Shown here piece by piece: positions 1 through 14,251 of a DNA stretch of 32,829 bases. Within the stretch, counting starts at the first letter, position 1. Each line of letters begins with the position of its first letter. The notes beneath the pieces are model-generated. The model saw nothing but the letters and a program-made list of their open reading frames with translations. It had not been told where the DNA came from and ran no database searches. The stretch comes from Promethearchaeota archaeon (lineage in GTDB: Archaea > Asgardarchaeota > Lokiarchaeia > Sigyniarchaeales > SOKP01), in the NCBI GenBank assembly GCA_019057795.1, contig JAHLWS010000066.1, positions 1 to 32,829 on the forward strand, read 5' to 3'. The translations under genes and the position numbers were made by a program.

Positions 1-188
1 ATTTAGAAAAAATACTTAATTTAATCTCTTAAGTGATAAAAATAATAGGATGCTCTTCGTGTAAACTTTTAAAAAGGGTTAATAGTTCCATATTTTTACA
101 TTATTGATGTAATCAAGTAAAACCTAACTTATTTCTTGACGGAATTTAGACGAAGACCAAGCGTTTGGTGGGGATTACTTTCAATTTT

Positions 189-608
189 TTACGTAGAGGA
201 AGCCTTTTTCAAATCAGTTAACGTTTTTTGTAACGCCTTTATTTCCGTGTTTACATCTTTAATTCTTTTCTTTTTTTCGCTATCTATTTCCTTCAATTTT
301 AGGTTTAACATTTTCTCTTTTTCATTAATTAATTTTACTGATTCTTTTTTTAATCCTTTTAGAGAAGGCTTTAATTCCTTCTTTTTTAAACTCCATTCAT
401 CAGCTTTTTCTACTGCTTCCTTTAACTTTTCTTGTTCGGCATTTAGTTTAGACTTAATCTCGTTGAGTTTAGGGTCGAACTCTAGCTCAACTTCGCTTTT
501 AATAGAAGAGCTCCTCTCATTAAATTCTTCTTCAATTTTACTTATTTCTTCCTTTTTTGAATTAATTTGGTTTTTAATTTCATCTTCCGACGTTAAATTA
601 CACCTCAT
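189..608 (-). CDS. Hypothetical coiled-coil protein
   Basis: 139-aa ORF, K/E/L-rich heptad-like composition throughout. Confidence 0.7.
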   Translation of the reverse strand: MRCNLTSEDEIKNQINSKKEEISKIEEEFNERSSSIKSEVELEFDPKLNEIKSKLNAEQEKLKEAVEKADEWSLKKKELKPSLKGLKKESVKLINEKEKMLNLKLKEIDSEKKKRIKDVNTEIKALQKTLTDLKKASST

Positions 609-762
609 TTAATATTTTTAACAATTTGGGCACTATAAGCCCAATTATTAATTATTTGGTTCGTATTTAACTCTTAGTATTTCTACATTTCTCTACGGAA
701 AAGGTCGAACATAATTAAACTGACCCTCTCTGGATTTTTAGAGGTGATTTTAGTCCTTTTCT

Positions 763-1035
763 TTAACGTTATGGAATAGAAAAAACGTGCCAAATGATGT
801 TCCAAAGAAATCTAAAAAACAATTTGGTCCGAAAACAGGAGACCCAGAAAAGTTTGAGACATGGGAAGAATTCTGGAATGTGTAGGTTAATCAAATTCAA
901 TTTACGATCAAACACACCGCTGAAAATCATAATCTTCCTGAGCAGTTGAGATCAGATTTTTTACCCACTCCTTATGTATCCACAATTGTAAGGGGATGGG
1001 CTGAAAAAGCGTTAGATATATTTGCCAATATTTAA
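763..1035 (+). pseudogene. Internal fragment of a pyruvate formate-lyase-family glycyl radical enzyme
   Basis: Manual translation LTLWNRKN...KQFGPKTGDPEKFETWEEFWNV*VNQIQF...FLPTPYVSTIVRGWAEKALDI matches the GPxTGDP..F.T.EEF and P.P..S....C.EK..D motifs of PFL-like enzymes; in-frame TAG at 883-885, no start codon. Confidence 0.7.
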
Positions 1036-1084
1036 ATTGGTAAATGTGTATATAAAATACAAATAATATAATTGACTTAAAAAG

Positions 1085-1822
1085 ATGTCCGAGGATAAAG
1101 AAAAAAATTATAAAAGATTAAAGAAAAAACGGGAAAAATTTAATTCCCTACCATTCAATAAAGAATTAATAAAAAAAGATGGTGAATCTTTAAGAAACTT
1201 ATTAAGTGATTATATTTCAAATGCTATTGGACGGATAGATCATTACGAAGAACAGAGAAAATGGTTTTTAGAGATAAATCTTGCGTTTTTGGCTTTTCTT
1301 GGAACAGCATTTGTCTTTATTTTGTCTTATCTTCTTAACCCTGAAAATATACCGATAAATATAAGTATATTAATACTTTTAGTAGGAATTAGTATAGGTA
1401 TCTTTATTTTTATTATTTTCTCGTTAATAATAATATTTTATTATTTCATAGAGCACGGAACTGAATTTGAGGATGAAAAAGATTTCAATAAAACCGAACA
1501 AGAATTAAATAAATTTTGGATTTCACCCAGATTCCATAGAGGAATTATACCAAAAAAAGAAGAGATTGAATGTGATCCATTACTCTTTATAAAAAAATTA
1601 AATAAATTCGCAAAAAATTTTACAAAAAAAGATTCTATCGAGAAATTATTGAGAGAAGATATAAAAACTCTTTTCAATATTTATATCCATCAAGATAACT
1701 ATTATAGAATTGGAACCTCTATTCGAGAACTTACAAAGTGGAGTTTTATCATTCTAATAATCTTTATTATTGGTAGTCCAATCGTTTCTTTAATAACTTT
1801 TATTATTCAAATGACAATCTAA
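1085..1822 (+). CDS. 3-TM membrane protein, Pycsar effector (DUF5706)-like topology
   Basis: Helix (IDHYEEQRKW), two TM segments, a soluble loop with PRFHRGI, helix LLREDIKTLFNIY, then a third TM; family assignment is tentative. Confidence 0.55.
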   Translation: MSEDKEKNYKRLKKKREKFNSLPFNKELIKKDGESLRNLLSDYISNAIGRIDHYEEQRKWFLEINLAFLAFLGTAFVFILSYLLNPENIPINISILILLVGISIGIFIFIIFSLIIIFYYFIEHGTEFEDEKDFNKTEQELNKFWISPRFHRGIIPKKEEIECDPLLFIKKLNKFAKNFTKKDSIEKLLREDIKTLFNIYIHQDNYYRIGTSIRELTKWSFIILIIFIIGSPIVSLITFIIQMTI

Positions 1823-1932
1823 ACCTTTTAGAAATTTTTTAATTCAAATTATTAAAGTATTTTTTCGGATTTTTTGATTCTCAGTGTTTATATTCAGTTA
1901 ATAGTAAGTAAATTGTTCATTTTATTAAATAT

Positions 1933-2484
1933 CTAATCTTTATAGTATAATACTCCGATTGAATTGGACTTACTAGCAAATTCTTGAGATAGTTTATGGC
2001 TTTCGTGAATGACAAAACTTTCTTTTAACGGTCTTCCACTTTTTCCTGTATTAAAAAGAGTAGATTGAAACAATTGAACTGCAATATTTACCATTTCAAC
2101 ATCTAAAATCGAATAACGATCGATGTCTTTAAATCTTTGAGATAGTCGCATTTTAAACCTGTATAGCTGCGGTTGAGCCATGCTCTTCTTGTTCCAAATG
2201 TGACTTTTGATTAAGAATTCTTTATCGTTCAATAACGCCATAACTCCAAACGGAACATCGTATATTTTATCGTATTTTAACAAATACATTCTACTTGGAT
2301 GAGATTTAAGAACTTCAAAAATTATGAATTCTGGCAAAATTGGATATTCTCCGCTCTCGATTAACTCACTATATACTTTTACGAACAAATCTTTTTGTTT
2401 ATTGCTAATGTCTCCATCAAAAAGGAAAATTACCCTTTGTTCCCTTAAAATTTCGATCTGAACTAACATTTCTTGAAAAAGCAT
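1933..2484 (-). CDS. Hypothetical protein
   Basis: ORF 1933..2580 in track; ATG at 2484 (MLFQEML) is the more plausible start. Confidence 0.6.
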   Translation of the reverse strand: MLFQEMLVQIEILREQRVIFLFDGDISNKQKDLFVKVYSELIESGEYPILPEFIIFEVLKSHPSRMYLLKYDKIYDVPFGVMALLNDKEFLIKSHIWNKKSMAQPQLYRFKMRLSQRFKDIDRYSILDVEMVNIAVQLFQSTLFNTGKSGRPLKESFVIHESHKLSQEFASKSNSIGVLYYKD

Positions 2485-2625
2485 TAAAACAACAAAGCAA
2501 CGAAAGTATTTAAATAAAAATAACGATACTAATTTAGTAATTTCCAAATTAGAGAGGATGAATATATGCAAGAAGTCCAAGCTAAAGTTAGAGAATTTAT
2601 AGAAAAATATGATTTTTCAGCGAAC

Positions 2626-2922
2626 CTAAGTATTTCCATAAGGATTATCTAATTGATCTATGATCTCTTTCAATCTCAATTTCAAAATTATTCCGTTATT
2701 TGTTAAATGGATCGTTTTATGTTTCTTTATTGAGTCATACTCGATGGAGATAATATTTTTTTGAAGTAATTCCTTTTTAACTCGTAAAAACATATTATAA
2801 TAATCTGTTTCATTAAGGTTTTTAGTGAATTGCATAATAGAAATTTTTGATCCATCACTCGATAAGAGATCCAAGACTCGATAGAAACCATATTTCCTTA
2901 ATAAGCTTGTTTTTTCGATCAA
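2626..2922 (-). CDS. Winged helix-turn-helix DNA-binding protein
   Basis: 98 aa; ELLQKNIISIEY...KTIHLTNNG..L is a MarR/HxlR-like wing signature. Confidence 0.65.
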   Translation of the reverse strand: MIEKTSLLRKYGFYRVLDLLSSDGSKISIMQFTKNLNETDYYNMFLRVKKELLQKNIISIEYDSIKKHKTIHLTNNGIILKLRLKEIIDQLDNPYGNT

Positions 2923-3275
2923 TTTTTAAACCAGATTTATTTTAATTTTTTTATTAAATTTAGATTAATATGTTAATAATATAGACGTTCTCTTATTTAA
3001 AGTTCACCTATTTAACCAGAATTGAGTTTTAAATGAGATGGTGAAATATACCACAAATCTGGGTTTATTTTTACCATACATAAAATGTATCGAAAAGAGT
3101 TAGTATTAAATTAAAATTGTTATAGACAGAAAATGAGATCAGAAGAAAATTTCCATTTCATGATGACTATATTTTTTAAACTTAATCCATAATTTCACCC
3201 TGAATAGATTAATAATCATGAAAATTTTAAGACTTAAGACAAATAAAATTAATTTATAATTTTTCATAAACGATA

Positions 3276-3845
3276 TTAACGATTCTCTACTTTTTTCTTC
3301 AAATAATCTATGAAATCATTTAGCACCTGAACATTTGAGTCGAAATCATATTTTCTTGAGTAAAACACTTCATTTGGACCTATTTCACGCCCTAAATTTA
3401 AACGTCGTATTAAAAACTGGTGTATTACAGGAAAATTTGTAACATGTATTTCAAAATCATTATCATATAGGGTATTATCATCTCTATATCTAAAACCGAT
3501 TACTACTAATTTTGGAAATAATTCACCTAATTCTTGTATAACTTCCAATTCTCTTAAATTAGCTCCGCCTTCTATATATTCTATATCTTCATATCCTTCA
3601 AGCAATACTATAATCCTTTTTATAGGGTCATATCTTTTTTGTTTAGACTCTTTTTCCTTTTCCTCGACTTCAATCTCTCTAAATTTAGGTATAACCATCA
3701 TTTCAAGAATAAAAAATGAAGGTGTCCAGATTACAGGAATGATCAAGAGTAGTAAAAGATTAAAGATGGAGAATATAACTATAATTATTGTCATAATTAC
3801 CAATATTATAGAGATTATCCATCGCAATTTCCATATTTTATTCAT
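3276..3845 (-). CDS. Hypothetical membrane protein (2 N-terminal TM helices)
   Basis: 189-aa ORF, hydrophobic N-terminal 50 aa, GAGGA RBS-like sequence upstream. Confidence 0.7.
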   Translation of the reverse strand: MNKIWKLRWIISIILVIMTIIIVIFSIFNLLLLLIIPVIWTPSFFILEMMVIPKFREIEVEEKEKESKQKRYDPIKRIIVLLEGYEDIEYIEGGANLRELEVIQELGELFPKLVVIGFRYRDDNTLYDNDFEIHVTNFPVIHQFLIRRLNLGREIGPNEVFYSRKYDFDSNVQVLNDFIDYLKKKVENR

Positions 3846-4319
3846 TTTTTCCTCTTTTTAATTTTATTAAATAATTATTTTATATCTTTAAGAAAATAAT
3901 TCATATATTTAAACAAGAATACACAACAAAATTAAAAATATTAACTATTATTTTTTTATTAATTTTATCCTGGAAAAATTTTTTTACATTCCCATCAGAA
4001 ACATATATCGTTGGTAAAAAACCTGTTGCACTACTTTTTTCTCTAGGTATATTCGGAAGAAAACAATCAGATAGAATAGTTTTTATTTAGTATTCTCACA
4101 ACTAAAATTTCTAATTCCTTTAAGGATATTGACTTGATTTTATCATAAATTTCTTCTTTCAACATAGTAACCCATTTATTTCTATCTTATATCTTATATC
4201 TTATAATTAAAATAATAATTTAAAAAGAAAAATTTGTGTAATAATCCATTAATAGTTAATTAATAATTAATTGCAACAGAGAGGAGTGGATTTAAAAACT
4301 TCAAATTTATGATATTTAT

Positions 4320-4571
4320 ATGAACGAAGACGATATCAGAAAAGCTATAATGAAGAAAGCGCACACCTATGCAGAATGGACAATTGGGATAACAGAAAAT
4401 CCAAAAACACGTAAAAGTGGTCATGGAAATCCTAAAAAATGGTTTCAATGGAGAGCCAATACTGAGGGCGTTGTCAGAAAACTTGAAAAAGACTTCCTTA
4501 AAAAAGGGATGAAGGGTGCAACTGGTGGTGGCAAAGAGCCAAAATACATCTATATTTTTAAAAAAAAATGA
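4320..4571 (+). CDS. Small GIY-YIG-like protein
   Basis: WTIGIT.NP..R...H, R.LEK.FL..GM.G..GGG...YIY pattern resembles a minimal GIY-YIG-fold family. Confidence 0.6.
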   Translation: MNEDDIRKAIMKKAHTYAEWTIGITENPKTRKSGHGNPKKWFQWRANTEGVVRKLEKDFLKKGMKGATGGGKEPKYIYIFKKK

Positions 4572-4602
4572 TGAAACAGAGATAAATGCTTTAATTAATC
4601 AC

Positions 4603-5637
4603 TTATTTATATTTCATTATATCTCTTATAATTTCATTTAAACCTGTGATAAATGCTGTAATTTCAGAAGTGGGATTGTCTATTTGTTCAAGTTCCTGTC
4701 GTTTCTTTGTTAATTGTTTGACAATATTTTTTCTATTTGATATGATTTTCTCTCTTTCTTCCCGGATTAAAATATAATATTCATTTTTTAAAAATCTAAA
4801 AAACTGTAAATTATTTTCATCTATAGTTTTAACAATTAAATCAAAGAATTCTCCTAATTTTTTGCACATATAGAGTATTTTGAGAACTTCTAAGTCCCTA
4901 TTTCCTTTATTATGAGCTTTTTCAATATCAGGAATAATCGTTTCATTAAGTAATAGCCTTGCCTTCTTAGCAGGCGTTAACAAATATAATATATCGATGA
5001 ATTCAAGATTTAGACTTGAGTCCAAATTAAAGATCATATTATAAGCAAAATCTAAAAATTTCTTTATTACTGGTAATTCTACCTCAGAGATTTTCTTTCT
5101 ACTAAAAATATCATTAAATTTGTCTCTTATAATATAAATTAAGACATCGTTCTCTGAGGGTTGTACCTCACTCCATATTTCAATTATTTCTTCAATTACA
5201 TTAAGATTCGGAATTTTTATGTCTAAATTTCGTTCTTTTAATGATAGATATTCAATAAGAGCTTCTTTATCAAATTGTTCATATTTCTCCCTTATTATAT
5301 TCATCTTTTTTTTAATATCATCTATTTTTTCTCTTGTAATTGAAAAATAATGTAAATATGTTTCTAATTCTAAAATTTTTCCCCATTTTTCTCTATTACA
5401 TTTGTTATGAGAAGGAACTAAGTTAATTATATCATTAATCTTAAAATCAGGTGATAATTTTAATTGTTTTTTAAGGGTTTCATATTCCTTGGGAAAATTT
5501 TTTGGCACTACTTGCGCTATAATGTGATCAATGTGAAGATTCGGATATTTTGATATTAGATCTTTACAATAAAAACATTGCTTATTAAATACATCCCTAA
5601 TTGCAGTTCTAAATATTGGGTCTTGAATATTTACCAT
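4603..5637 (-). CDS. HNH endonuclease with C-terminal helical domain
   Basis: CFYC...HIDHII...NLVPSHNKCNREK canonical HNH motif in the first 85 aa. Confidence 0.85.
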   Translation of the reverse strand: MVNIQDPIFRTAIRDVFNKQCFYCKDLISKYPNLHIDHIIAQVVPKNFPKEYETLKKQLKLSPDFKINDIINLVPSHNKCNREKWGKILELETYLHYFSITREKIDDIKKKMNIIREKYEQFDKEALIEYLSLKERNLDIKIPNLNVIEEIIEIWSEVQPSENDVLIYIIRDKFNDIFSRKKISEVELPVIKKFLDFAYNMIFNLDSSLNLEFIDILYLLTPAKKARLLLNETIIPDIEKAHNKGNRDLEVLKILYMCKKLGEFFDLIVKTIDENNLQFFRFLKNEYYILIREEREKIISNRKNIVKQLTKKRQELEQIDNPTSEITAFITGLNEIIRDIMKYK

Positions 5638-5688
5638 ACATTTATTCTATTTTTTTTTTGTAAATAAATTTCATTATTTATTATAGAT

Positions 5689-6567
5689 TCAAGAAATTAA
5701 GTTAGGAAAATATTCTAAAATTCCAGATCGGTTGAGATTTTTCCATAAATCACTTCCATGAAATTCCCAATCTTGAGTTTTTTTCCATTCTTCATTAATT
5801 CTCATTTCCAGGTTGTTTACATAATATTCTAATTTCTCATCATCAATATCCATTATAGACAATAAATCTCTTATATCAATACCATGAACACCTCCTAAAA
5901 TACACTCCATAAAATAGGTATCTCGGCCTAAATCTCCTGAATGAATAGCCTTGTTGAAATTCATTAAACGAATATCATTATTTGAATCTTTTTTTGCTCC
6001 AATACTCGTATGAATTGAAATCAGACCGTAAATACAATTTGGGTTGTTTTTCATTTTTAATTTAACAGGATGAGGAATGTAACTGTTAGAATTTAATACA
6101 TCACTATTAATACACCTACCTAGTCTAATTCTATATTCCTGAATCTTTTCCTTGTGGTTTAGATTTTTTTCTTGATATGGATAAAAATTCCAAAGAAATT
6201 CACTAATGGTTTTAAATTTATCATTATTTGTGTTGTAGTGGATTAATTCATTTTTAATTCTCTCTATTATGGAACTCGGATAGCCTTCTCTTTGTGCAAC
6301 TCTTTTTAAGACCTCATCCTTGATATAATAAGCAATACATTCAAAGGAGTTCCCTGACTTATCAATAGACTCATAAATATTTACAATCTCCCCAATAGGA
6401 TCGAAGTCTTTACCAATATCCATATAACGCCCCCGATTAGTATTGAATCCTCGTCTTCCTCGAAATCTAACGATAAATGGTTTTACAATTTCCAAATTAT
6501 TTGTTGATTTTCTTTCATCAATTCCAAAACGACTCATTAATGAACCATAACCAATTACTAAGATCAT
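5689..6567 (-). CDS. Gamma-glutamylcyclotransferase (GGCT/ChaC/AIG2-like) domain protein
   Basis: N-terminal VIGYGSLMS, G.RGFN strand and conserved REGY motif. Confidence 0.65.
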   Translation of the reverse strand: MILVIGYGSLMSRFGIDERKSTNNLEIVKPFIVRFRGRRGFNTNRGRYMDIGKDFDPIGEIVNIYESIDKSGNSFECIAYYIKDEVLKRVAQREGYPSSIIERIKNELIHYNTNNDKFKTISEFLWNFYPYQEKNLNHKEKIQEYRIRLGRCINSDVLNSNSYIPHPVKLKMKNNPNCIYGLISIHTSIGAKKDSNNDIRLMNFNKAIHSGDLGRDTYFMECILGGVHGIDIRDLLSIMDIDDEKLEYYVNNLEMRINEEWKKTQDWEFHGSDLWKNLNRSGILEYFPNLIS

Positions 6568-6582
6568 TTTTACCCCTAATTT

Positions 6583-9500
6583 TTAGATTATTCTTTCAAA
6601 ATAAACACCGATTTCTTTTTCTGTTTCATTTCTATCGAAAATACTTTTAAAAAATAACCTTGCTTCTAAAAACCGTTTACTCAAATAAACATTATAATCT
6701 CTAAGTATTTGCTTTAAAAGTTTATGATTAATTAAAAAACGTAAACCATAGAATCGTAGATTTCTTGAATAGGAATTTGAAACATACCCCTCTTGCCATT
6801 CTTCAAATTTAGCTACTATAGAACCATTTCTAAAGAAATTAAATGAATTATCGAAATTTAGATTATAGTGATCTATGATATATTTTGGTAAAGATATAAT
6901 ACCGCGATATCCAAAAAATGGATATTTGTTTGCTTTTTTTATTAATATTGGTAAAGAGTGGTGGTCTTCCTTAATTTTAAAAATATCTTTCTGTATATAA
7001 TTCCTTGCTTGTCTAATTGTAATATTTTCATTTTGATTTATTAAATCCATACTTATTTCAATTTCCTTAGCTGAACTTGAATCCTTCCTAATCAAGATTG
7101 AATCTTGTTGTAAATGAGTTTTATACCTTTCACTCAAACCTTCCTCTGTTTCATAGCATCTAAATTCAAAAATCGTTATCCATTCATCTGGATTCGAAAT
7201 CATTTTAATTGTACCATCTAACTTTTTTAATTGATCAAACCAAGATACCTTATTCTCAATAACGGGTTTCTCTATATCTATTGGTCTTGGTTTAATTTTA
7301 GAAAAGCTATATTCAAAATCAACAGATTGTAATATCCGCCATAAACTTTTAAGTTGTTTATCACTTACAGGGTTCTTTTCTAATAGATTGTTAATTATTT
7401 TATTAATATTTTTTAGTATTTTATAATCAAAATGTGTTAATATTGGTACATATGTAAAACCTTGAGCATGAACATTACCCTTCCAGTCTAAATTGAGTCT
7501 TTTTTCTTCTTCTTGAATGTTCCAATTCTGCCGTAATAAATTTTCTTCTAATAAATGTATGAAATGATTCTCATTAATATTCAGAACATTGCAGCATGCC
7601 TCTATTTTTTTAATTAAATTAATATTACGATATAGAAAAGATGTAAACTGAATAGAAGGAGATATATTAGGAATATTAATTTCTACTATTTCTTCATTGG
7701 TAGTTGTTTTATATTTGAGATTCTCTATTTTTTCTAGGATTTCTTCATCATTTTCAATTTTTTTTTGTATGTTTTTTAAAATTTTAATCAGCATCATCTT
7801 TATTGAAAAAGAGGCAATCATAAGTTCCTGTTCTAATTGTTCAATGAATGGATGTAATTGGACAGCTAATTCAAATGAAATCATATATATTATTTGGATT
7901 AATCTTTCTTTTAACAAACCAGTGCTTGTACTTAATTTTGAAAATATATACGGAATGAGTAATTGAGGCTGTTTCAGACACAACCATCGATAAGAATCTA
8001 ATAATCTTCTATATAAATCAATTTCAATTGTTTTAAGTCCATCAGTTAACAAATCAAGAGCAATTTGATCAAAATCCATCTCTTCTATTTTAATGGTTTT
8101 AATCCATTCATAATCATCTATGCTGGGTAAATGATAAAATAATGATTTAGTGTGTATATAATAATCTTCATATATCTTTTGAATTGATTCGATATCCTCA
8201 AAAATATCAAGAGCATTAACAATTAGTACGGGAACTTGAAATCCTGTATATTTTTTAAGTATATTATATATTTTTTTAATTACCAGCGATTTGGCCCTGT
8301 CAACATCGTGATTCTTAATAATCTCTAAGAAAAGGTTATCTGACGGGTTCCAATCAAAAAATCCAAAGTGATCTAGATATGCTTTCTCATAATGATCAAG
8401 TGCATAGCTTATTTCACCTAGCTCATAAAACTTCTCTGCTAGCTCTTCTTGCAAGGATATTCCTACATTATTATTAATAAAATCTGTTATGTCTCTTAAT
8501 TTTTCTACCTCAACTGTTCTTAATATGAAGTTTTTTAGAATATTGCTAAATTCAGATGTTATATAGAAATTTTCATTTTCAATTTTAAGAGCGTTGATGA
8601 TTTTTTTATAATTTTCGAATGATTCTTGTAGTTTATTCTTAATCTCCTCTTCAGAAACTTTTTCACCATTTAAAATATATTCCCTTATGTTATCTTCTTC
8701 CTGTGTAGTCGAAACCAAATCCTTCTCTTCCTGATACTCGATATTGAAGTATTTAAAATCAAGTTTTTGCCAATCCTTGGGATTTATGGTTGTTTTTACA
8801 AAGAGCAATAATCTATCTTTAAAATTCTCAACAATACCACTATCCCCTCCTTTTTCAATTAATTCAATAATTTTTTGCTTAGAGTTGAATATCTGCTTGG
8901 AATATCGACCATCTTCAGAGTATTCATTTGTAAACAGTTCTGTAAGTGCCCATAATATTTCTGGATTTCCGTAATTTAATTTATTAATTAAATATTCCAG
9001 ACAATCTTGCATCTGCCATCGACTTTTATTCTTGGCGTAAATCTTTAACACTTCCAATGCTATATTAAAATCTATCTTTGTAATTTCTCTAAATATATAA
9101 TATGGAAAATGCCTAGTTTCTTTTCCATCTGTGAGATGAGGCATCCAATCTACTAATTCAATTAATTCAGCACATCTTGATAATGATTGTTCAGAATCAT
9201 ATTTATTTAATTTACTCATAATTCTAATCAGTTGATAAAGAGTCATATCTTTTCTATAACCATAAATTAAGGTCGATTTTATTCCAATTTTTAACCATTC
9301 TTTTGTTTTATCTTTAAAACCACAATATGCAGAAATTAATGCTAATAAGAAAAAATGCTCAACTCTATTCCCTCCTTTGATCATTGTTGATTGAAGAATT
9401 TTTTCCTCAGAGTAATCTAAGAAATCTATTATATTTCTTTTTATTAGTGAAATTCTTGATAATTTTTTATAGATTAACAATTCAAAGACATAATTATCCC

Positions 9501-12500
9501 ACAATTCTCCAAAGCTTACTCTTTTTGTCCATAATTCAGAGGATTGTAGAGATTTTATCTTATTAAACCAATCAGTTAATCTTAAAGGATATTTCTCAAC
9601 AATTACCTGTGTTAATTTATATAAGCTAGTTTTTAATTCATTACGACTGACTCGAATAAGATTCCAAATATCTTCTCTTCTTGCAGGTTTTATATTTGAA
9701 AGATAATCAAGAGCTTCTATGGCTAAATTAAAAACATCATCATCACTATTTCTTAAATAATATCCATAGAATTCTCCTGCTTTAATTAAATATAATAAGT
9801 AATTATGCCACCATGATGGATTGGATTCTAAATATAACTGCAAATTCTTATGGTGTTTCCTTTTATTAATATAACCTAGTGTCCACAGTTTTCTACGATA
9901 TTTTTCTAAACCTCTATCTGAATATTTAACTTGTCTTGAAATTAAAAGATCATTTACATCAGGAATTATAAATTCATTTTCTATTTCGCTGATTGGAAAT
10001 TTTGTAAGTGCTTTATAAAAGATAATCTGAGAATTTAATTTATCTTTATAATTTGACGCATATTCTTGAAGCTCTTCTTTTAATAATTCCAATTTTTCGT
10101 TTTTAGCTAAGCTTTTGATTATATAGATTTGAATTATTTCATTTAGAGAATCCATATCAATATTTTTAATTGTATTCCAATACGGTTTATCATGGAATTT
10201 TATTAAATAATTTATGTATGCTTCAATATGTGGAAAGGAATTCTCAGGATTTTCCATTAACTTCTCTTCTATAAAACTTGGGTTAATTTTACACGCTCTC
10301 AAATAGAGAAGTTCATTATTAACAGAATATGAATGTATTCCTAAACATTTACAGTACTTGAGAAATACTTCTACATTTTCAAACTTCCTAAAAGAAATTG
10401 TTTCGTTGAAGATTTGAAATAGTTCATAGCTTAGATCATCAAAACCTTGTTTTGCTAATTGAATTATAATACTTAAAGCTAAACCCTTATTGATAAGCCA
10501 TTTGTTATGATTTATTGAATATGTATATTTTAATACTTTTTCATGATCGCCCAAAGTTAACAATACTTTTGATAATAAGTTCCAATTCATATGATATTCG
10601 ACTCTTTGTTGAGTGATATTTTTAAGAGAGGCAAGGCGACTTAAAGATATTAAATCTTTTTTATCTTTTGCTGATTTTATCGCCCAAGTAATTGCGTTTT
10701 CGATATCTTCCTCGGATCTATAATTATATAAAGCTGTATCTATTAAGTCACTTGTTACCTTTTCTAATATATAATCATAATCATCAACTTGATAAGCATA
10801 TTCAAACACATAGCTAAACCATTCATCACTATATTCCAGCGTTTTAAGATGATTTGTAATATCAAGATTAATTGCTTTCAAATACTGATTATCAAATTGA
10901 GAAATGACATATTCTCTGAAGCTATTGTGAAATATTGAAACGAAATCATTATTGTCTTTAACAAGATGCTTAATTAGCTTAAAGCAATCTTGAAATACAG
11001 GTAGTGCAAGAATCTTTTGAAAATTGATTAGTTCATCTTTTTTAACTTGAAACCTTAGACAAGCTAATACACCACATAAATGTCTTACATTTCCTTTCCC
11101 AAATTGTTGAAATTCATCCCATAAATAATCATAATAAGATTTTATTTCACCATTCTCTATAGACGTTAGATTACTTGCAACTTCCTCAAAGTCTTGATAA
11201 TCTTTCATTAATTCTGAAATATAACGTAGATAAATTGGTAATCCTTCACTTATTTTAAATATTTTGTGAACTTGCTCTTCGAATAATATATTTTCACCTA
11301 ATTTTTTTTTAAGATAGGTTAGAGTTTCATTAAAATCAAAGAGAGGGAGGACAATCGATTGTTCAGGATTATCTTTTATAATTTGTAAAAATATAGGCCA
11401 TTTATGTAATTCCTGTGTTCCTACGATAAAAATGATTCCTTTAGGAATACTTCTTGGAAGGGTATTTAATAGACTTTCTTGAACTTCAACTGCCATTTTT
11501 TCAGCGTGATCAAGACCATCCAAAAAAATAACTAACTTTTTTTCATTCTCTTCAAAATGATTTCCAATTTCTAATAGAATATGATTAAAATTATGCTCGG
11601 AATAATCATAACGTCTATCTAGAATTTCAGAATAGTTGACTTGAATTTGATTTAATAGATTTATTCTTAAAGTTTTTGCTTGTATTCTTAAATTTTGAAA
11701 ATTATCATTGATGTCAACAAAACAATAGTACTTAATAACTTCATATTCAGCTAAATCTCTTAAAATATCTAAATATTGGGTTAAACTTGTAGATTTACCA
11801 CTTCCTGGTAGCCCAGTTATTATTATATAATCTCCATTGATATTTTGAATAGCCTTTTCAAGCTTCTTATTAAATAATTCACGTTGAACATAAAATTCTT
11901 CATTAATCTCAAAGACTTGATGTAATAAATACTTGGTTGTTTCTTTTTCAAAAATTTCTCTAAAGAAATTAGAATTTATTGAATTTCGACTATAAATAGC
12001 ATAATTTTCAAACTCAATTTTTAAAATATTATAAACAGAATTATCATATATACCAAGTCGTGTGTTAAGTAAATTTTCTTGTATATATTGGTTTAATTCT
12101 GGAATATTTTTTTCCTTAAAATGAAACTGAAAGCTTTTTAAAAATTCTTTAAACTCTGCTTCATTTAATTCTGAAGATTCTTTTAATTTATTACGGTTCT
12201 CACGAGCTTTCTTACGTTTTTTATTTTCAATAAATTGTTCAGTGAAAGTTCCATCATTATTAATAATTTCATTGATTTCTTCATCAACTGAATGATTAGT
12301 TAAAAGAAATGTATAAATTTCTTTTTCAGGATGATTTTCCTTAAAGCTTTTCCAACCCTCTGCAAACTTCTTGATAAACACCCGTTTCTTATTAGGGTCT
12401 TCTTCATCTATAAAATCAATTATCTTGTAAGATGCATGTGGATCAACTGAATACTTAATCTGATATGCAAGAATTTGATTATCAATAAAAATAACAACAT

Positions 12501-12660
12501 CATCTAAATTTCCTTTACTATCATATTCCATATACAGGTTAAAATCTTGATTTTCAATGTATAATTCTAATGCTAAACGAAGTGCCATTATGTCTTGATA
12601 TTGATCTCCCTTCCTTCTTGAACTGCTTCTTTTTGGATTATTAGAGCTAAGATTTATCAT
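6583..12660 (-). CDS. Avs/AVAST-like antiviral STAND NTPase with N-terminal Cap4-like PD-(D/E)XK nuclease
   Basis: 2025 aa; GDQYQD...E...LDDV...YQIK nuclease motif; Walker A GLPGSGKST; Walker B VIFLDGLDH; GLPIY and FHNSFREY motifs; long helical sensor region. Confidence 0.85.
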   Translation of the reverse strand: MINLSSNNPKRSSSRRKGDQYQDIMALRLALELYIENQDFNLYMEYDSKGNLDDVVIFIDNQILAYQIKYSVDPHASYKIIDFIDEEDPNKKRVFIKKFAEGWKSFKENHPEKEIYTFLLTNHSVDEEINEIINNDGTFTEQFIENKKRKKARENRNKLKESSELNEAEFKEFLKSFQFHFKEKNIPELNQYIQENLLNTRLGIYDNSVYNILKIEFENYAIYSRNSINSNFFREIFEKETTKYLLHQVFEINEEFYVQRELFNKKLEKAIQNINGDYIIITGLPGSGKSTSLTQYLDILRDLAEYEVIKYYCFVDINDNFQNLRIQAKTLRINLLNQIQVNYSEILDRRYDYSEHNFNHILLEIGNHFEENEKKLVIFLDGLDHAEKMAVEVQESLLNTLPRSIPKGIIFIVGTQELHKWPIFLQIIKDNPEQSIVLPLFDFNETLTYLKKKLGENILFEEQVHKIFKISEGLPIYLRYISELMKDYQDFEEVASNLTSIENGEIKSYYDYLWDEFQQFGKGNVRHLCGVLACLRFQVKKDELINFQKILALPVFQDCFKLIKHLVKDNNDFVSIFHNSFREYVISQFDNQYLKAINLDITNHLKTLEYSDEWFSYVFEYAYQVDDYDYILEKVTSDLIDTALYNYRSEEDIENAITWAIKSAKDKKDLISLSRLASLKNITQQRVEYHMNWNLLSKVLLTLGDHEKVLKYTYSINHNKWLINKGLALSIIIQLAKQGFDDLSYELFQIFNETISFRKFENVEVFLKYCKCLGIHSYSVNNELLYLRACKINPSFIEEKLMENPENSFPHIEAYINYLIKFHDKPYWNTIKNIDMDSLNEIIQIYIIKSLAKNEKLELLKEELQEYASNYKDKLNSQIIFYKALTKFPISEIENEFIIPDVNDLLISRQVKYSDRGLEKYRRKLWTLGYINKRKHHKNLQLYLESNPSWWHNYLLYLIKAGEFYGYYLRNSDDDVFNLAIEALDYLSNIKPARREDIWNLIRVSRNELKTSLYKLTQVIVEKYPLRLTDWFNKIKSLQSSELWTKRVSFGELWDNYVFELLIYKKLSRISLIKRNIIDFLDYSEEKILQSTMIKGGNRVEHFFLLALISAYCGFKDKTKEWLKIGIKSTLIYGYRKDMTLYQLIRIMSKLNKYDSEQSLSRCAELIELVDWMPHLTDGKETRHFPYYIFREITKIDFNIALEVLKIYAKNKSRWQMQDCLEYLINKLNYGNPEILWALTELFTNEYSEDGRYSKQIFNSKQKIIELIEKGGDSGIVENFKDRLLLFVKTTINPKDWQKLDFKYFNIEYQEEKDLVSTTQEEDNIREYILNGEKVSEEEIKNKLQESFENYKKIINALKIENENFYITSEFSNILKNFILRTVEVEKLRDITDFINNNVGISLQEELAEKFYELGEISYALDHYEKAYLDHFGFFDWNPSDNLFLEIIKNHDVDRAKSLVIKKIYNILKKYTGFQVPVLIVNALDIFEDIESIQKIYEDYYIHTKSLFYHLPSIDDYEWIKTIKIEEMDFDQIALDLLTDGLKTIEIDLYRRLLDSYRWLCLKQPQLLIPYIFSKLSTSTGLLKERLIQIIYMISFELAVQLHPFIEQLEQELMIASFSIKMMLIKILKNIQKKIENDEEILEKIENLKYKTTTNEEIVEINIPNISPSIQFTSFLYRNINLIKKIEACCNVLNINENHFIHLLEENLLRQNWNIQEEEKRLNLDWKGNVHAQGFTYVPILTHFDYKILKNINKIINNLLEKNPVSDKQLKSLWRILQSVDFEYSFSKIKPRPIDIEKPVIENKVSWFDQLKKLDGTIKMISNPDEWITIFEFRCYETEEGLSERYKTHLQQDSILIRKDSSSAKEIEISMDLINQNENITIRQARNYIQKDIFKIKEDHHSLPILIKKANKYPFFGYRGIISLPKYIIDHYNLNFDNSFNFFRNGSIVAKFEEWQEGYVSNSYSRNLRFYGLRFLINHKLLKQILRDYNVYLSKRFLEARLFFKSIFDRNETEKEIGVYFERII

Positions 12661-12869
12661 CTTTTTTTATCTTTTTAAAATGTTATTTTTCTTGTTTTTA
12701 ATATGAGTAAAGATAGATATAAAATGTTCTTCAAATAGAATGGAAGATAAGAAAAAAATAATTTTTCAAATTGATTATATTACTAAATCTTTGAAAATAA
12801 TCTTAAAGTACTATTCTATACCTAGCATTTTTACTCATTTTAGCAATAATTTTTCTTTGGTTTTTAGCC

Positions 12870-13145
12870 TTATTTTTTCTTTGATTTGCAAAAATTATTC
12901 TTTGTTACATTTACATATTTAAATAATTTTTCTCGTTTTCTTGCTTCCCACTCTTTTCTTTTCCCAGGATTATACATATTAACAACACTGTAATATCCCG
13001 TAACTCTTGAATATACTTTCGTATCTTCAGAATAACATTGAGGACATGTAAATTGACTTCCTCGATACACCTTACGACAGGATGGACAATATACAAAATC
13101 TGTAGTATATGCAAAATATCCAGTATTTTTACTCTTTCTTTTCAA
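12870..13145 (-). pseudogene. nrdD: C-terminal fragment (Zn finger plus glycyl-radical loop) of anaerobic ribonucleotide reductase
   Basis: CPSC...CPQC...YSRVTGYY....NPGKRKE..AR is the NrdD C-terminus; TTG start only, upstream frame closed; could instead be an intact small gene. Confidence 0.75.
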
Positions 13146-13704
13146 ACTTCAAATCTAACTTAGCGACAGATTAAAATTCAAAAGACTTGTTTAGGGCGAA
13201 TTTTATCTTTCTTTGAAATAACAATTATTTCGCGAGTATTTAAATCTTTTTACTTAATCGATTTAATATAACTCCGGAATTTTTCCTTCTTAAATTAATT
13301 GCTTTTTATTTCAGAGGGCAAAAAACTACCTCCTGAAACGAGCAAGATTTATTTTTCTTTTTTTAGAACCATTAGCATTTATATCTAATAAAATAATAGA
13401 TAATATTGACTATATTGACGAACAACGGTAATTTACTGGTGAAATCGAGTTAAATTCACAACAAATCTTAGAGAAATTTGAGTATCGTCACACTAAAGAA
13501 TTGAAAATAAAATTTGAGTGTTAAAAACTTTTGGATGTGGGATCGTTTTGAAATTGTGCGCAACCTCTTTTTATAATCTTGCTTAAAATTGTCGATTATA
13601 ATTTTGCAAGAATCTGGTCCAGCTCCAATATTTTCTATAAGATATAATTTATAATTGTTCGAAAATATGAAGATTAACTTTTTTGATAAAGAATTAAGAA
13701 CAAA

Positions 13705-14037
13705 TTAGAAAAAATGAATTTGCTTATTCAAGTATTTATCTAGCGAACCATCTTTCAAAAAATAATCTTTCCAATCGTCTTTCGGTCCAATCAATAAGTA
13801 AAAGTTTATCTCAGGTTCAAGTTTAATTTTAGCGTTTTCAAAACTTTTTTTAAATTCTAACACTTGGTCTTCTTTTGCATTTTTCTTAGTAGTCTCCCAT
13901 ACAACATAACAAAAGAAATATAACTTAGTCTCAATACCATATTCTTTCATAAAAAATTTGTAATTTTCATACCCGCTTCTTAAAGCTTCAAAATCGCGTT
14001 TAATTGTAGTATAATTAATGGTTTCCCTTGGAGGCAT
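13705..14037 (-). CDS. Hypothetical protein, probably the 5'-truncated half of a PD-(D/E)XK nuclease
   Basis: The frame stays open upstream of the ATG and reads ...HLIELK-MPPRE before running into an AT-rich repeat tract. Confidence 0.4.
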   Translation of the reverse strand: MPPRETINYTTIKRDFEALRSGYENYKFFMKEYGIETKLYFFCYVVWETTKKNAKEDQVLEFKKSFENAKIKLEPEINFYLLIGPKDDWKDYFLKDGSLDKYLNKQIHFF

Positions 14038-14100
14038 TTTAAGTTCGATTAGATGCGAACAAAAAGTGGCTCTTTTTGGAGTGTCTTTCTCACTTTTTTT

Positions 14101-14153
14101 TTCTTATTATTTTTTCTTATTCTTATTCATTTCTTATTATTCTTATTATTATT
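14101..14153. repeat. Degenerate TTCTTATT(A) short tandem repeat tract
   Basis: ttcttattat/ttcttat/tcttattcat/ttcttattat/tcttattatt seen directly. Confidence 0.6.
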
Positions 14154-14251
14154 AAAACCAATAAATTTGAGTCTAAAATTGAAAAAAAGTTAACTCCCAA
14201 GCGTTCGATATAAAAAGGAAAAATTCCGATATTTCGGTAAACCAGCTAAGT

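Follow-up and report, generated by a model that had tools for sequence, protein, structure and literature searches.

The window analyzed here is the whole stretch of DNA under study (32,829 nucleotides (nt)), and it corresponds to an entire contig (C66; 32.8 kb) of a metagenome-assembled genome (MAG) from the Promethearchaeota (Asgard archaea); the relatives of its genes likewise carry Promethearchaeota titles. The window harbors three closely spaced genes: P0001 encodes a large nuclease-STAND protein resembling the antiviral sensors of the Avs type, P0002 a protein with the fold of gamma-glutamylcyclotransferases (GGCT), and P0003 an HNH nuclease. A preliminary description, made from the DNA sequence alone, had reported three co-oriented genes separated by gaps of 15 and 51 bp, and the list of open reading frames (ORFs) gives identical coordinates and spacing, with all three genes on the minus strand. 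The accompanying domain calls (an Avs3-like nuclease-STAND protein, a GGCT-like enzyme and an HNH nuclease) were all upheld by profile and structure searches. Tight co-orientation of three genes is commonplace in archaea and alone says little; the real question for this trio is the conservation of its linkage. The features of the locus, given with their coordinates, strand, amino acid (aa) positions and the type of support, are the following:

6583..12660, minus strand: P0001, a 2025-aa Avs3-like antiviral STAND protein (ORF list and translation)
12076..12642, minus strand: Cap4-type PD-(D/E)xK nuclease effector domain of P0001, aa 7-195 (PADLOC, invariant residues)
10294..11904, minus strand: STAND NTPase module of P0001, aa 253-789 (PADLOC, NCBIfam, Pfam, Walker motifs)
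7219..10293, minus strand: helical-repeat (TPR/ARM-like) sensor arm of P0001, aa about 790-1814 (AlphaFold2 from aa 1300, Foldseek, VIA-align)
6589..7209, minus strand: C-terminal beta-rich sensor domain of P0001, aa 1818-2024 (AlphaFold2, Foldseek/VIA-align to SeAvs3)
6568..6582, minus strand: P0001/P0002 spacer, 15 bp, with the Shine-Dalgarno-like AGGGGT (sequence reading)
5689..6567, minus strand: P0002, a 292-aa GGCT-fold protein of an unannotated family (ORF list, AlphaFold2, VIA, motifs)
5638..5688, minus strand: P0002/P0003 spacer, 51 bp, AT-rich, with the TATA-like TTTATTTA (sequence reading)
4603..5637, minus strand: P0003, 344 aa, an N-terminal HNH nuclease followed by a helical C-terminal part (ORF list, Pfam, PHROG)
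5323-5613, minus strand: HNH domain of P0003, aa 9-105 (Pfam, PHROG)

The N-terminus of P0001 (aa 7-184) matches the PADLOC model of a Cap4-like effector endonuclease (PDLC00741; E 2.5e-18) and also the SAVED-PDDEXK models of this database (E 1.6e-16); the profile match to Cap4 (7yib) is weak, and Pfam Cap4_nuclease/PF14130 is annotated on P0001 homologues. Database searches retrieved 29 full-length homologues of about 2030 aa (28-68% identity), nearly all of which stem from sediment metagenomes. In the alignment of these proteins, the residues of the PD-QxK-type nuclease (D53, D54, Q67, K69) are invariant, as are the Walker A (GLPGSGKST, 283-291) and Walker B (DGLDH, 381-385) motifs, and a W-Q-E-G-Y...Y-S-R block near the C-terminus is conserved family-wide. 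The best match of the segment between residues 253 and 789 is the STAND module of Avs1b (PADLOC, E 1.1e-36; NCBIfam, E 7e-32), and Pfam NPHP3_N, AAA_16 and NB-ARC match it as well; Avs1b is the only Avs model among the PADLOC matches of P0001 at E values up to 1.

An AlphaFold2 model that covers aa 1300-2025, with the helical arm between aa 790 and 1299 outside the model, reached a predicted local distance difference test (pLDDT) score of 82.6 and is helical to about aa 1814, with a beta-rich end (1818-2024). Its top Foldseek match is the complex of SeAvs3 with the PhiV-1 terminase (8dgc_A; E 4.6e-14, probability 1.00), while the runner-up scores 2.6e-3. VIA-align superimposes 539 residues on 8dgc with a Z score of 13.7 and a root-mean-square deviation of 15.8, a value that reflects a multi-domain comparison. 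The other matches are helical repeats, a background that reaches a VIA Z score of 12.9, and the case for an Avs3 sensor fold rests for this reason on the gap in the Foldseek ranking and on the coverage of the beta domain: SeAvs3 8dgc is the sole structural match whose alignment extends to the C-terminal end of the model. Because the Cap4 and STAND matches, the invariant catalytic residues and the 8dgc-like sensor fold coincide in one polypeptide chain, P0001 has the layout of Avs3 and, judged by the model, its sensor fold, and it represents a distant archaeal relative. Across 400 genomes of the phylum, a search with the C-terminal half of P0001 found the window alone, weak evidence given that few candidates were scored per genome.

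Avs proteins in archaea have already been reported, and the best point of comparison for P0001 is SeAvs3, the Avs3 protein of Salmonella enterica reportedly described by Gao et al. in 2022. Both proteins are of near-equal length (2025 aa for P0001 versus about 2030) and share the same order of parts, namely a Cap4-type nuclease, a STAND NTPase, a helical sensor arm and a C-terminal beta sensor domain, and the C-terminal approximately 700 residues of the P0001 model (model positions 36-726; P0001 1335-2025) run colinear with residues 1348-2073 of the SeAvs3 chain. The homologues of P0001 are, like SeAvs3, single genes in defence islands. The two proteins differ in that P0001 possesses no detectable sequence similarity to SeAvs3 beyond generic STAND and Cap4 signatures, in that its host is an Asgard archaeon and its trigger is proposed by analogy, and in that the Avs gene is trailed by two extra genes in the lineage of the window. 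Although the AVAST type 1 protein Avs1b (PDLC02159, NF041810) provides the best sequence match for the STAND module of P0001, the similarity is restricted to model positions 199-733 of about 1930 and scores 110 bits, far under the cut-off of 1500 bits; moreover, the N-terminus of Avs1b is a protease, whereas that of P0001 is a Cap4 nuclease. Avs1 is reported to be close to Avs3 in structure, and Avs1 to Avs3 have a C-terminal terminase-binding sensor in common (PMC13601566). In SeAvs3, terminase binding leads to a tetramer, whose nuclease then degrades double-stranded DNA (PMC13601566).

The second gene of the trio encodes a protein that escapes recognition at the sequence level: searches with the single sequence and with a profile returned nothing useful from Pfam (E up to 1), NCBIfam, PADLOC, PHROG and the PDB, and the Pfam families GGACT, ChaC and AIG2_2 were not matched. 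Its AlphaFold2 model (pLDDT 90.2; predicted template modelling score 0.89) is of high quality, and all top structural matches found with Foldseek and VIA-align possess the GGCT fold; the VIA Z scores are 10.4 for human GGCT (3cry; 154 residues), 10.3 for YkqA, 7.7 for ChaC2, 7.3 for the yeast ChaC protein and 6.7 for GGACT. With the GGCT-fold enzymes (human GGCT, 3cry/2rbh; Bacillus subtilis YkqA, 2qik; ChaC2, 6ky0; GGACT, 3jud), P0002 has the fold and the N-terminal GYGSL loop in common, and a near-invariant Glu residue is the candidate counterpart of their catalytic Glu, but it lacks their Pfam signatures and possesses family-specific additions, namely about 70 helical residues inserted at aa 84-153 and, towards the C-terminus, a helical part that carries the strongly conserved motif YFxECILGGVHGIxxRDLL.

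The GYGSLMS loop (G6-Y-G8-S9-L10-M-S12) is invariant or nearly so among the close family and 23 distant members, and the R93-E94-G-Y96 segment is conserved even in members with 20% identity, with E94 present in at least 90% of the family. E94 is located at the expected position, in the helix that follows the core strand, and its R-E-G-Y context is, as we take it, that of the ChaC-type motif. The loop and E94 fit, as far as sequence motifs can tell, the substrate loop and the catalytic Glu of the GGCT fold, and E94 is the putative equivalent of Glu98 of GGCT or of the ChaC Glu. Database searches retrieved 44 homologues (286-300 aa, mostly 50-80% identity), and an exhaustive profile search of 1.84 billion representatives recovered just 71 clusters; within the phylum, relatives are present in 12 of the 400 genomes, and several of these genes are broken. 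Judged by its predicted structure, P0002 founds an unannotated, rare family of known fold. The prediction of a complex between P0002 and residues 1329-2025 of P0001 gave a score of 0.00; it was run without controls and has no bearing either way.

P0003 scores above the gathering cut-off of the Pfam HNH family (23.1 versus 21.4 bits; E 8.2e-5) and also matches an HNH endonuclease family of PHROG (2118; E 2.9e-9). The residues of the beta-beta-alpha-metal motif (C21xxC24, H35xD37H38, H77N78xC80N81) can be read directly from the translation, and the rest of the protein is a helical C-terminal part. P0003 has just three known close homologues, and relatives occur in 8 of the 400 genomes of the phylum. 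A search of the IMG/VR viral contigs with the patterns used found relatives of neither P0002 nor P0003, and a viral origin of these two genes is unsupported.

When the three families are followed beyond the closest relatives of the window, their members part company. Avs homologues with 68% (L050), 60% (L051) and 40% (L052/53) identity have no trace of P0002 or P0003 nearby, and the genes downstream of them are either convergent or unrelated. Two P0003 homologues (L054, 78%; L055, 60%) have no P0002 counterpart, and their upstream genes are located on the opposite strand. At about 25 distinct loci, homologues of P0002 (50-73% identity) occur with neither partner, and no neighbor family is found at more than four of these loci. 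At L004, the P0002 homologue is still a full ORF after the Avs gene has been reduced to a 78-aa remnant. Because the P0002 homologue (73%) at L006 is directly joined to sequence that lies beyond P0003 in the window (4198-4073; 81% to L006 5031-5156 in a tblastx comparison), P0003 looks, in this alignment, like an insertion of about 1.45 kb relative to L006. The corresponding remnant in the window is:

4073..4211, minus strand: remnant of the start of the gene that directly follows the P0002 homologue at L006 (tblastx)

Dedicated accessory genes that co-occur across the P0001 family were not found; the association is limited to the window, L057, L129 and the decayed copy at L004. L057 represents the same strain as the window (99.7% nucleotide identity) and contains the trio. 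In a group of related loci (L004/L005/L058), the 78-aa remnant of the Avs C-terminus (77%) precedes an intact P0002 homologue (71%) by 15 bp, and an ApeA-type HEPN gene occupies the place where the rest of the Avs gene would be. A P0002 remnant (aa 206-292; 91%) is followed by a P0003 homologue (86%) at G254/L014. L059 is 98% identical to the window at the nucleotide level, but only from 6309 to 4156; no Avs gene is found upstream, P0002 is truncated at residue 83, and P0003 is intact. In all, the trio is intact in the window, L057 and L129, and decayed in three further lineages. Recombination junctions were noted at window position 4074, where L057 diverges, and at 6309, the upstream breakpoint of L059 inside P0002.

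The spacers of the trio differ in their layout. Because the 15-bp spacer between P0001 and P0002, whose length recurs in L129 and L004, holds a Shine-Dalgarno motif (AGGGGT, five bases before the P0002 ATG) and is too short to accommodate a promoter, P0002 is probably expressed from the transcript of the Avs gene. The 51-bp spacer ahead of P0003 lacks a Shine-Dalgarno motif and has TTTATTTA some 23 nt upstream of the ATG, an arrangement that would fit a promoter of its own and a leaderless start. Many of the P0002 homologue loci without partners possess an upstream region of their own that is conserved, extends over about 100 nt and includes a ribosome-binding site of the GGAGGTGA type. Six loci (L001, L002, L012, L066, L069, L074) have a block in common about 110 nt upstream of the P0002 homologue (...ttagaaaacaaaataaaaata...tgaagaataaaaaaa...gaggaaggtga...ATG), and this block is, as it appears, a promoter or 5' leader that travels with the P0002 homologue.

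The region as a whole stands out by its base composition. The GC content of the genome is 31.4%, versus 26.5% for P0001, 29.7% for P0002 and 24.7% for P0003, and window positions 1-14200 have a GC content of 25-27%, around the lowest 5% of the 5-kb windows of this genome.

The preliminary description had proposed that the neighborhoods of homologues of the 292-aa protein would reveal whether GGCT-like genes are enriched near STAND or defence genes. What these neighborhoods contain is a mixture of defence-like and housekeeping genes without a constant neighbor, and the bulk Pfam and PADLOC scan of 121 neighbors yields counts per family with no baseline, and hence no enrichment figure. Among the archaeal homologues, the defence-like neighbors include ApeA HEPN, Trypco1 with a trypsin-LRR-RT (reverse transcriptase) protein, HinfI, a type IIG restriction-modification enzyme, AAA_21-LRR, HNH and ParB_N proteins, nucleotidyltransferases, and matches to PADLOC RT and HEC-06 models; DapB, an amidase and an ornithine/arginine decarboxylase represent the housekeeping side. 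Two homologue loci are islands in their own right. L004 (103-9704) is a dense Asgard defence island that combines an ApeA-type HEPN gene, the P0002 homologue and Metallophos_2 with a HinfI-type restriction enzyme and with Trypco1, which is accompanied by a trypsin-LRR-reverse-transcriptase protein of 1470 aa. L052/L053 (1-16790) is another stacked island, in which the P0001 homologue (40% identity) is flanked on one side by an integrase fragment and a TIR-SEFIR protein and on the other by a PglZ/DUF1156-methyltransferase/SNF2 helicase cluster.

The distant bacterial relatives of P0002 (22-29% identity) are found in an altogether different setting, a conserved operon that comprises genes for an MBL-fold protein, the P0002-like protein, a PTPS/QueD-like protein and a dihaem cytochrome c. 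The PTPS gene is located immediately downstream of the P0002-like gene at 18 loci, the MBL gene is often found upstream, and divergent MoxR-DUF58-VWA/BatA genes as well as M17/M24 peptidases are often nearby. In P0146 and P0157, the P0002-like domain is joined to MoeA in an N-terminal fusion. A 1670-aa protein (P0118; L128 4194-9206) combines an N-terminal P0002-like domain with E3_binding, CHAT and AAA_5/nSTAND3 domains, and its gene is divergent from adjoining genes for a molybdenum hydroxylase of the CO/xanthine-dehydrogenase type; these neighbors make P0118 ambiguous as separate evidence that the family is connected to STAND proteins, and we have set it aside. The distant branch of the family points to metabolism linked to pterin/molybdopterin genes and does not support a role in immunity; none of the neighbors of the bacterial branch recur in the archaeal one. 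The bacterial operon was seen in MAGs and metagenomes at L016-L023, L089, L096, L101, L102, L107 and L126, and seems to be a module, so far undescribed, with links to pterin or molybdopterin genes.

Since homologues of each of the three genes mostly occur without the other two, we favor, with moderate confidence, the interpretation that the locus consists of a stand-alone Avs3-like sensor and two separable passenger genes in a low-GC variable island. The variant three-gene system that the preliminary description had preferred finds no support across the families, and the independent stacking of the genes in an island, which it had offered as the alternative, fits the data better. Several observations weigh against our interpretation and should be carefully considered. 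Many of the contigs with homologues are short, and some partners could lie off the contig. L129, which originates from another metagenome, keeps the order Avs C-terminus, 15-bp gap, P0002, 68-bp gap and P0003 start, with identities to the window of 79% (Avs), 80% (P0002) and 80% (P0003); the rate of non-synonymous substitutions (dN) is about 0.10, the ratio to the synonymous rate (dN/dS) is 0.12-0.36 for all three genes, and all of them are under purifying selection in this pair. The preliminary description had named a trio that is never conserved as the result that would speak against its proposal; L129, at about 80% identity, does keep the trio, and it is the wider families that lack it. The dS values between the window and L129 range from 0.27 to 0.83 across the three genes, are noisy on account of the short stretches compared, and provide no decision on a common history. 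The Shine-Dalgarno motif in the 15-bp spacer suggests translation of P0002 from the Avs transcript, and Avs accessory genes exist elsewhere: a preprint on Avs2-trypsin-MBL reports an Avs sensor that works with an accessory enzyme (bioRxiv 10.64898/2026.08.25.746987). Finally, neither single sequences nor family profiles yielded a PDB sequence match between P0001 and 8dgc at E values up to 10, and the likeness of the two proteins is structural only. Much of this evidence could equally be gathered under a lineage-specific module that couples the Avs3-like sensor to the co-transcribed GGCT-like enzyme and that may or may not include the HNH nuclease; the GGCT-like enzyme could then be an additional effector, which upon activation would destroy a gamma-glutamyl metabolite or the tail of a cofactor, or it could regulate the sensor. 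The intact GGCT motifs of P0002, the former presence of the Avs-P0002 pair in the L004 lineage and the fusion of the distant family member P0118 to CHAT and AAA_5/nSTAND3 domains would suit such a module. We nevertheless consider it unlikely, in view of the confinement of the association to relatives with at least 77% identity and its absence from Avs homologues with at most 68% and P0002 homologues with at most 73% identity; furthermore, P0002 is intact without an Avs gene at L004, P0003 occurs without both partners (L054, L055, L059), and the NTPase of P0118 may be a maturation factor of the MoxR/CoxD type rather than an immune protein, given its molybdenum-hydroxylase neighbors. The Avs2-trypsin-MBL precedent differs from the situation in the window in that P0002 and P0003 are missing from most members of the P0001 family and each is also found alone.

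Two further explanations concern P0002 itself. It might be a single-gene defence or stress effector, in which case the island would stack three independent immune genes (Avs3-like, GGCT-like and HNH). Its patchy occurrence (the 12 of 400 genomes mentioned above), the frequent pseudogenes, a conserved upstream region of its own and variable neighbors that include ApeA HEPN, Trypco1, HinfI, type IIG, AAA_21-LRR, HNH and RT/HEC-06 matches are what one would expect of such a gene, but no sensor-like domain was recognised in it, PADLOC does not match it, the tally of defence neighbors has no baseline, housekeeping genes (DapB, amidase, ornithine/arginine decarboxylase) are among the neighbors too, and the bacterial relatives, with their MBL/PTPS/dihaem cytochrome c operon and MoeA fusions, point to metabolism; we judge this explanation to be quite improbable. 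If the bacterial branch is taken as the guide, P0002 would be an accessory metabolic enzyme outside immunity that resides in a variable region and acts, for example, on a gamma-glutamylated pterin, folate or F420-type compound. The recurrent PTPS and MBL genes next to its relatives, the MoeA fusions P0146 and P0157, and the molybdenum-hydroxylase genes beside P0118 are in keeping with that idea, but the archaeal branch is just 22-30% identical to those proteins and has none of their neighbors, and the probability that we assign to it is very small.

Under the favored interpretation of a stand-alone Avs3-like sensor with two passengers, tailed archaeal viruses would, by analogy with SeAvs3, be detected when the C-terminal sensor of P0001 binds one of their conserved virion-packaging proteins, for which the large terminase is the likeliest candidate. 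Oligomerisation of the STAND NTPase would follow, and the clustered N-terminal Cap4-type nuclease domains would cut double-stranded DNA, a process that would abort the infection. In one sub-lineage, P0002 and P0003 would have become neighbors of the Avs gene and would have been passed on jointly since then; the simplest account is that the lineages of the window, L129 and L004 descend from an ancestor with a single juxtaposition, which has since eroded piecemeal, with each gene able to persist alone. P0002 has probably retained a cyclotransferase-type activity that cleaves a gamma-glutamyl (or similar amide-linked) small molecule and is, in the lineage of the window, probably co-transcribed with the Avs gene, and P0003 would be an HNH nuclease with its own promoter-like spacer.

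With this locus, the Asgard archaea are seen to possess a pattern-recognition nuclease of Avs3 architecture, of which about 30 full-length relatives are found in sediment metagenomes, and this bears on the ancestry of NLR-type immunity close to the stem of the eukaryotes. It also brings to light a rare GGCT-fold family that is left unannotated by the sequence libraries, and the conserved bacterial operon and the MoeA fusions provide a lead for enzyme discovery. For the field of microbial defence, it offers a note of caution, as a tidy three-gene 'operon' in a defence island appears here as a recent juxtaposition and not as a conserved system. The preliminary description knew of no Avs system with a GGCT-like partner, and in this respect it still holds, as none turned up in the literature searched; a survey of 90 Avs families mentions neither GGCT nor HNH partners, and a search for literature that ties GGCT or AIG2 to phage defence found nothing relevant. 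That an Avs3-like terminase sensor of one Asgard sub-lineage recruited the co-transcribed GGCT-fold enzyme, and perhaps the HNH nuclease, as extra effectors is in our view rather doubtful. If true, the sensing of an infection would lead to both DNA cleavage and the destruction of a gamma-glutamyl-linked metabolite or cofactor tail, and this metabolite-depletion arm would be one not described for any Avs system.

Two further ORFs of the window deserve mention. A 215-aa ORF (1933-2580, minus strand) has a weak PADLOC match to the Argonaute model PprPIWI (E 2.7e-5; positions 548-600) and may be the remnant of a pAgo gene; the ORFs that flank it (2626-2922 and 3276-3845) gave no matches. A 91-aa ORF (12870-13145, minus strand) corresponds to a stand-alone C-terminal glycyl-radical end of the anaerobic ribonucleotide reductase NrdD (Pfam NRDD, 496-560 of 562; E 1.8e-16). 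Over 55 aa, it shows 87% identity to a locus, presumed to be the full NrdD gene, on another contig (C70) of this genome. This short ORF could encode a spare-part protein, or could be a duplication scar at the edge of the island.

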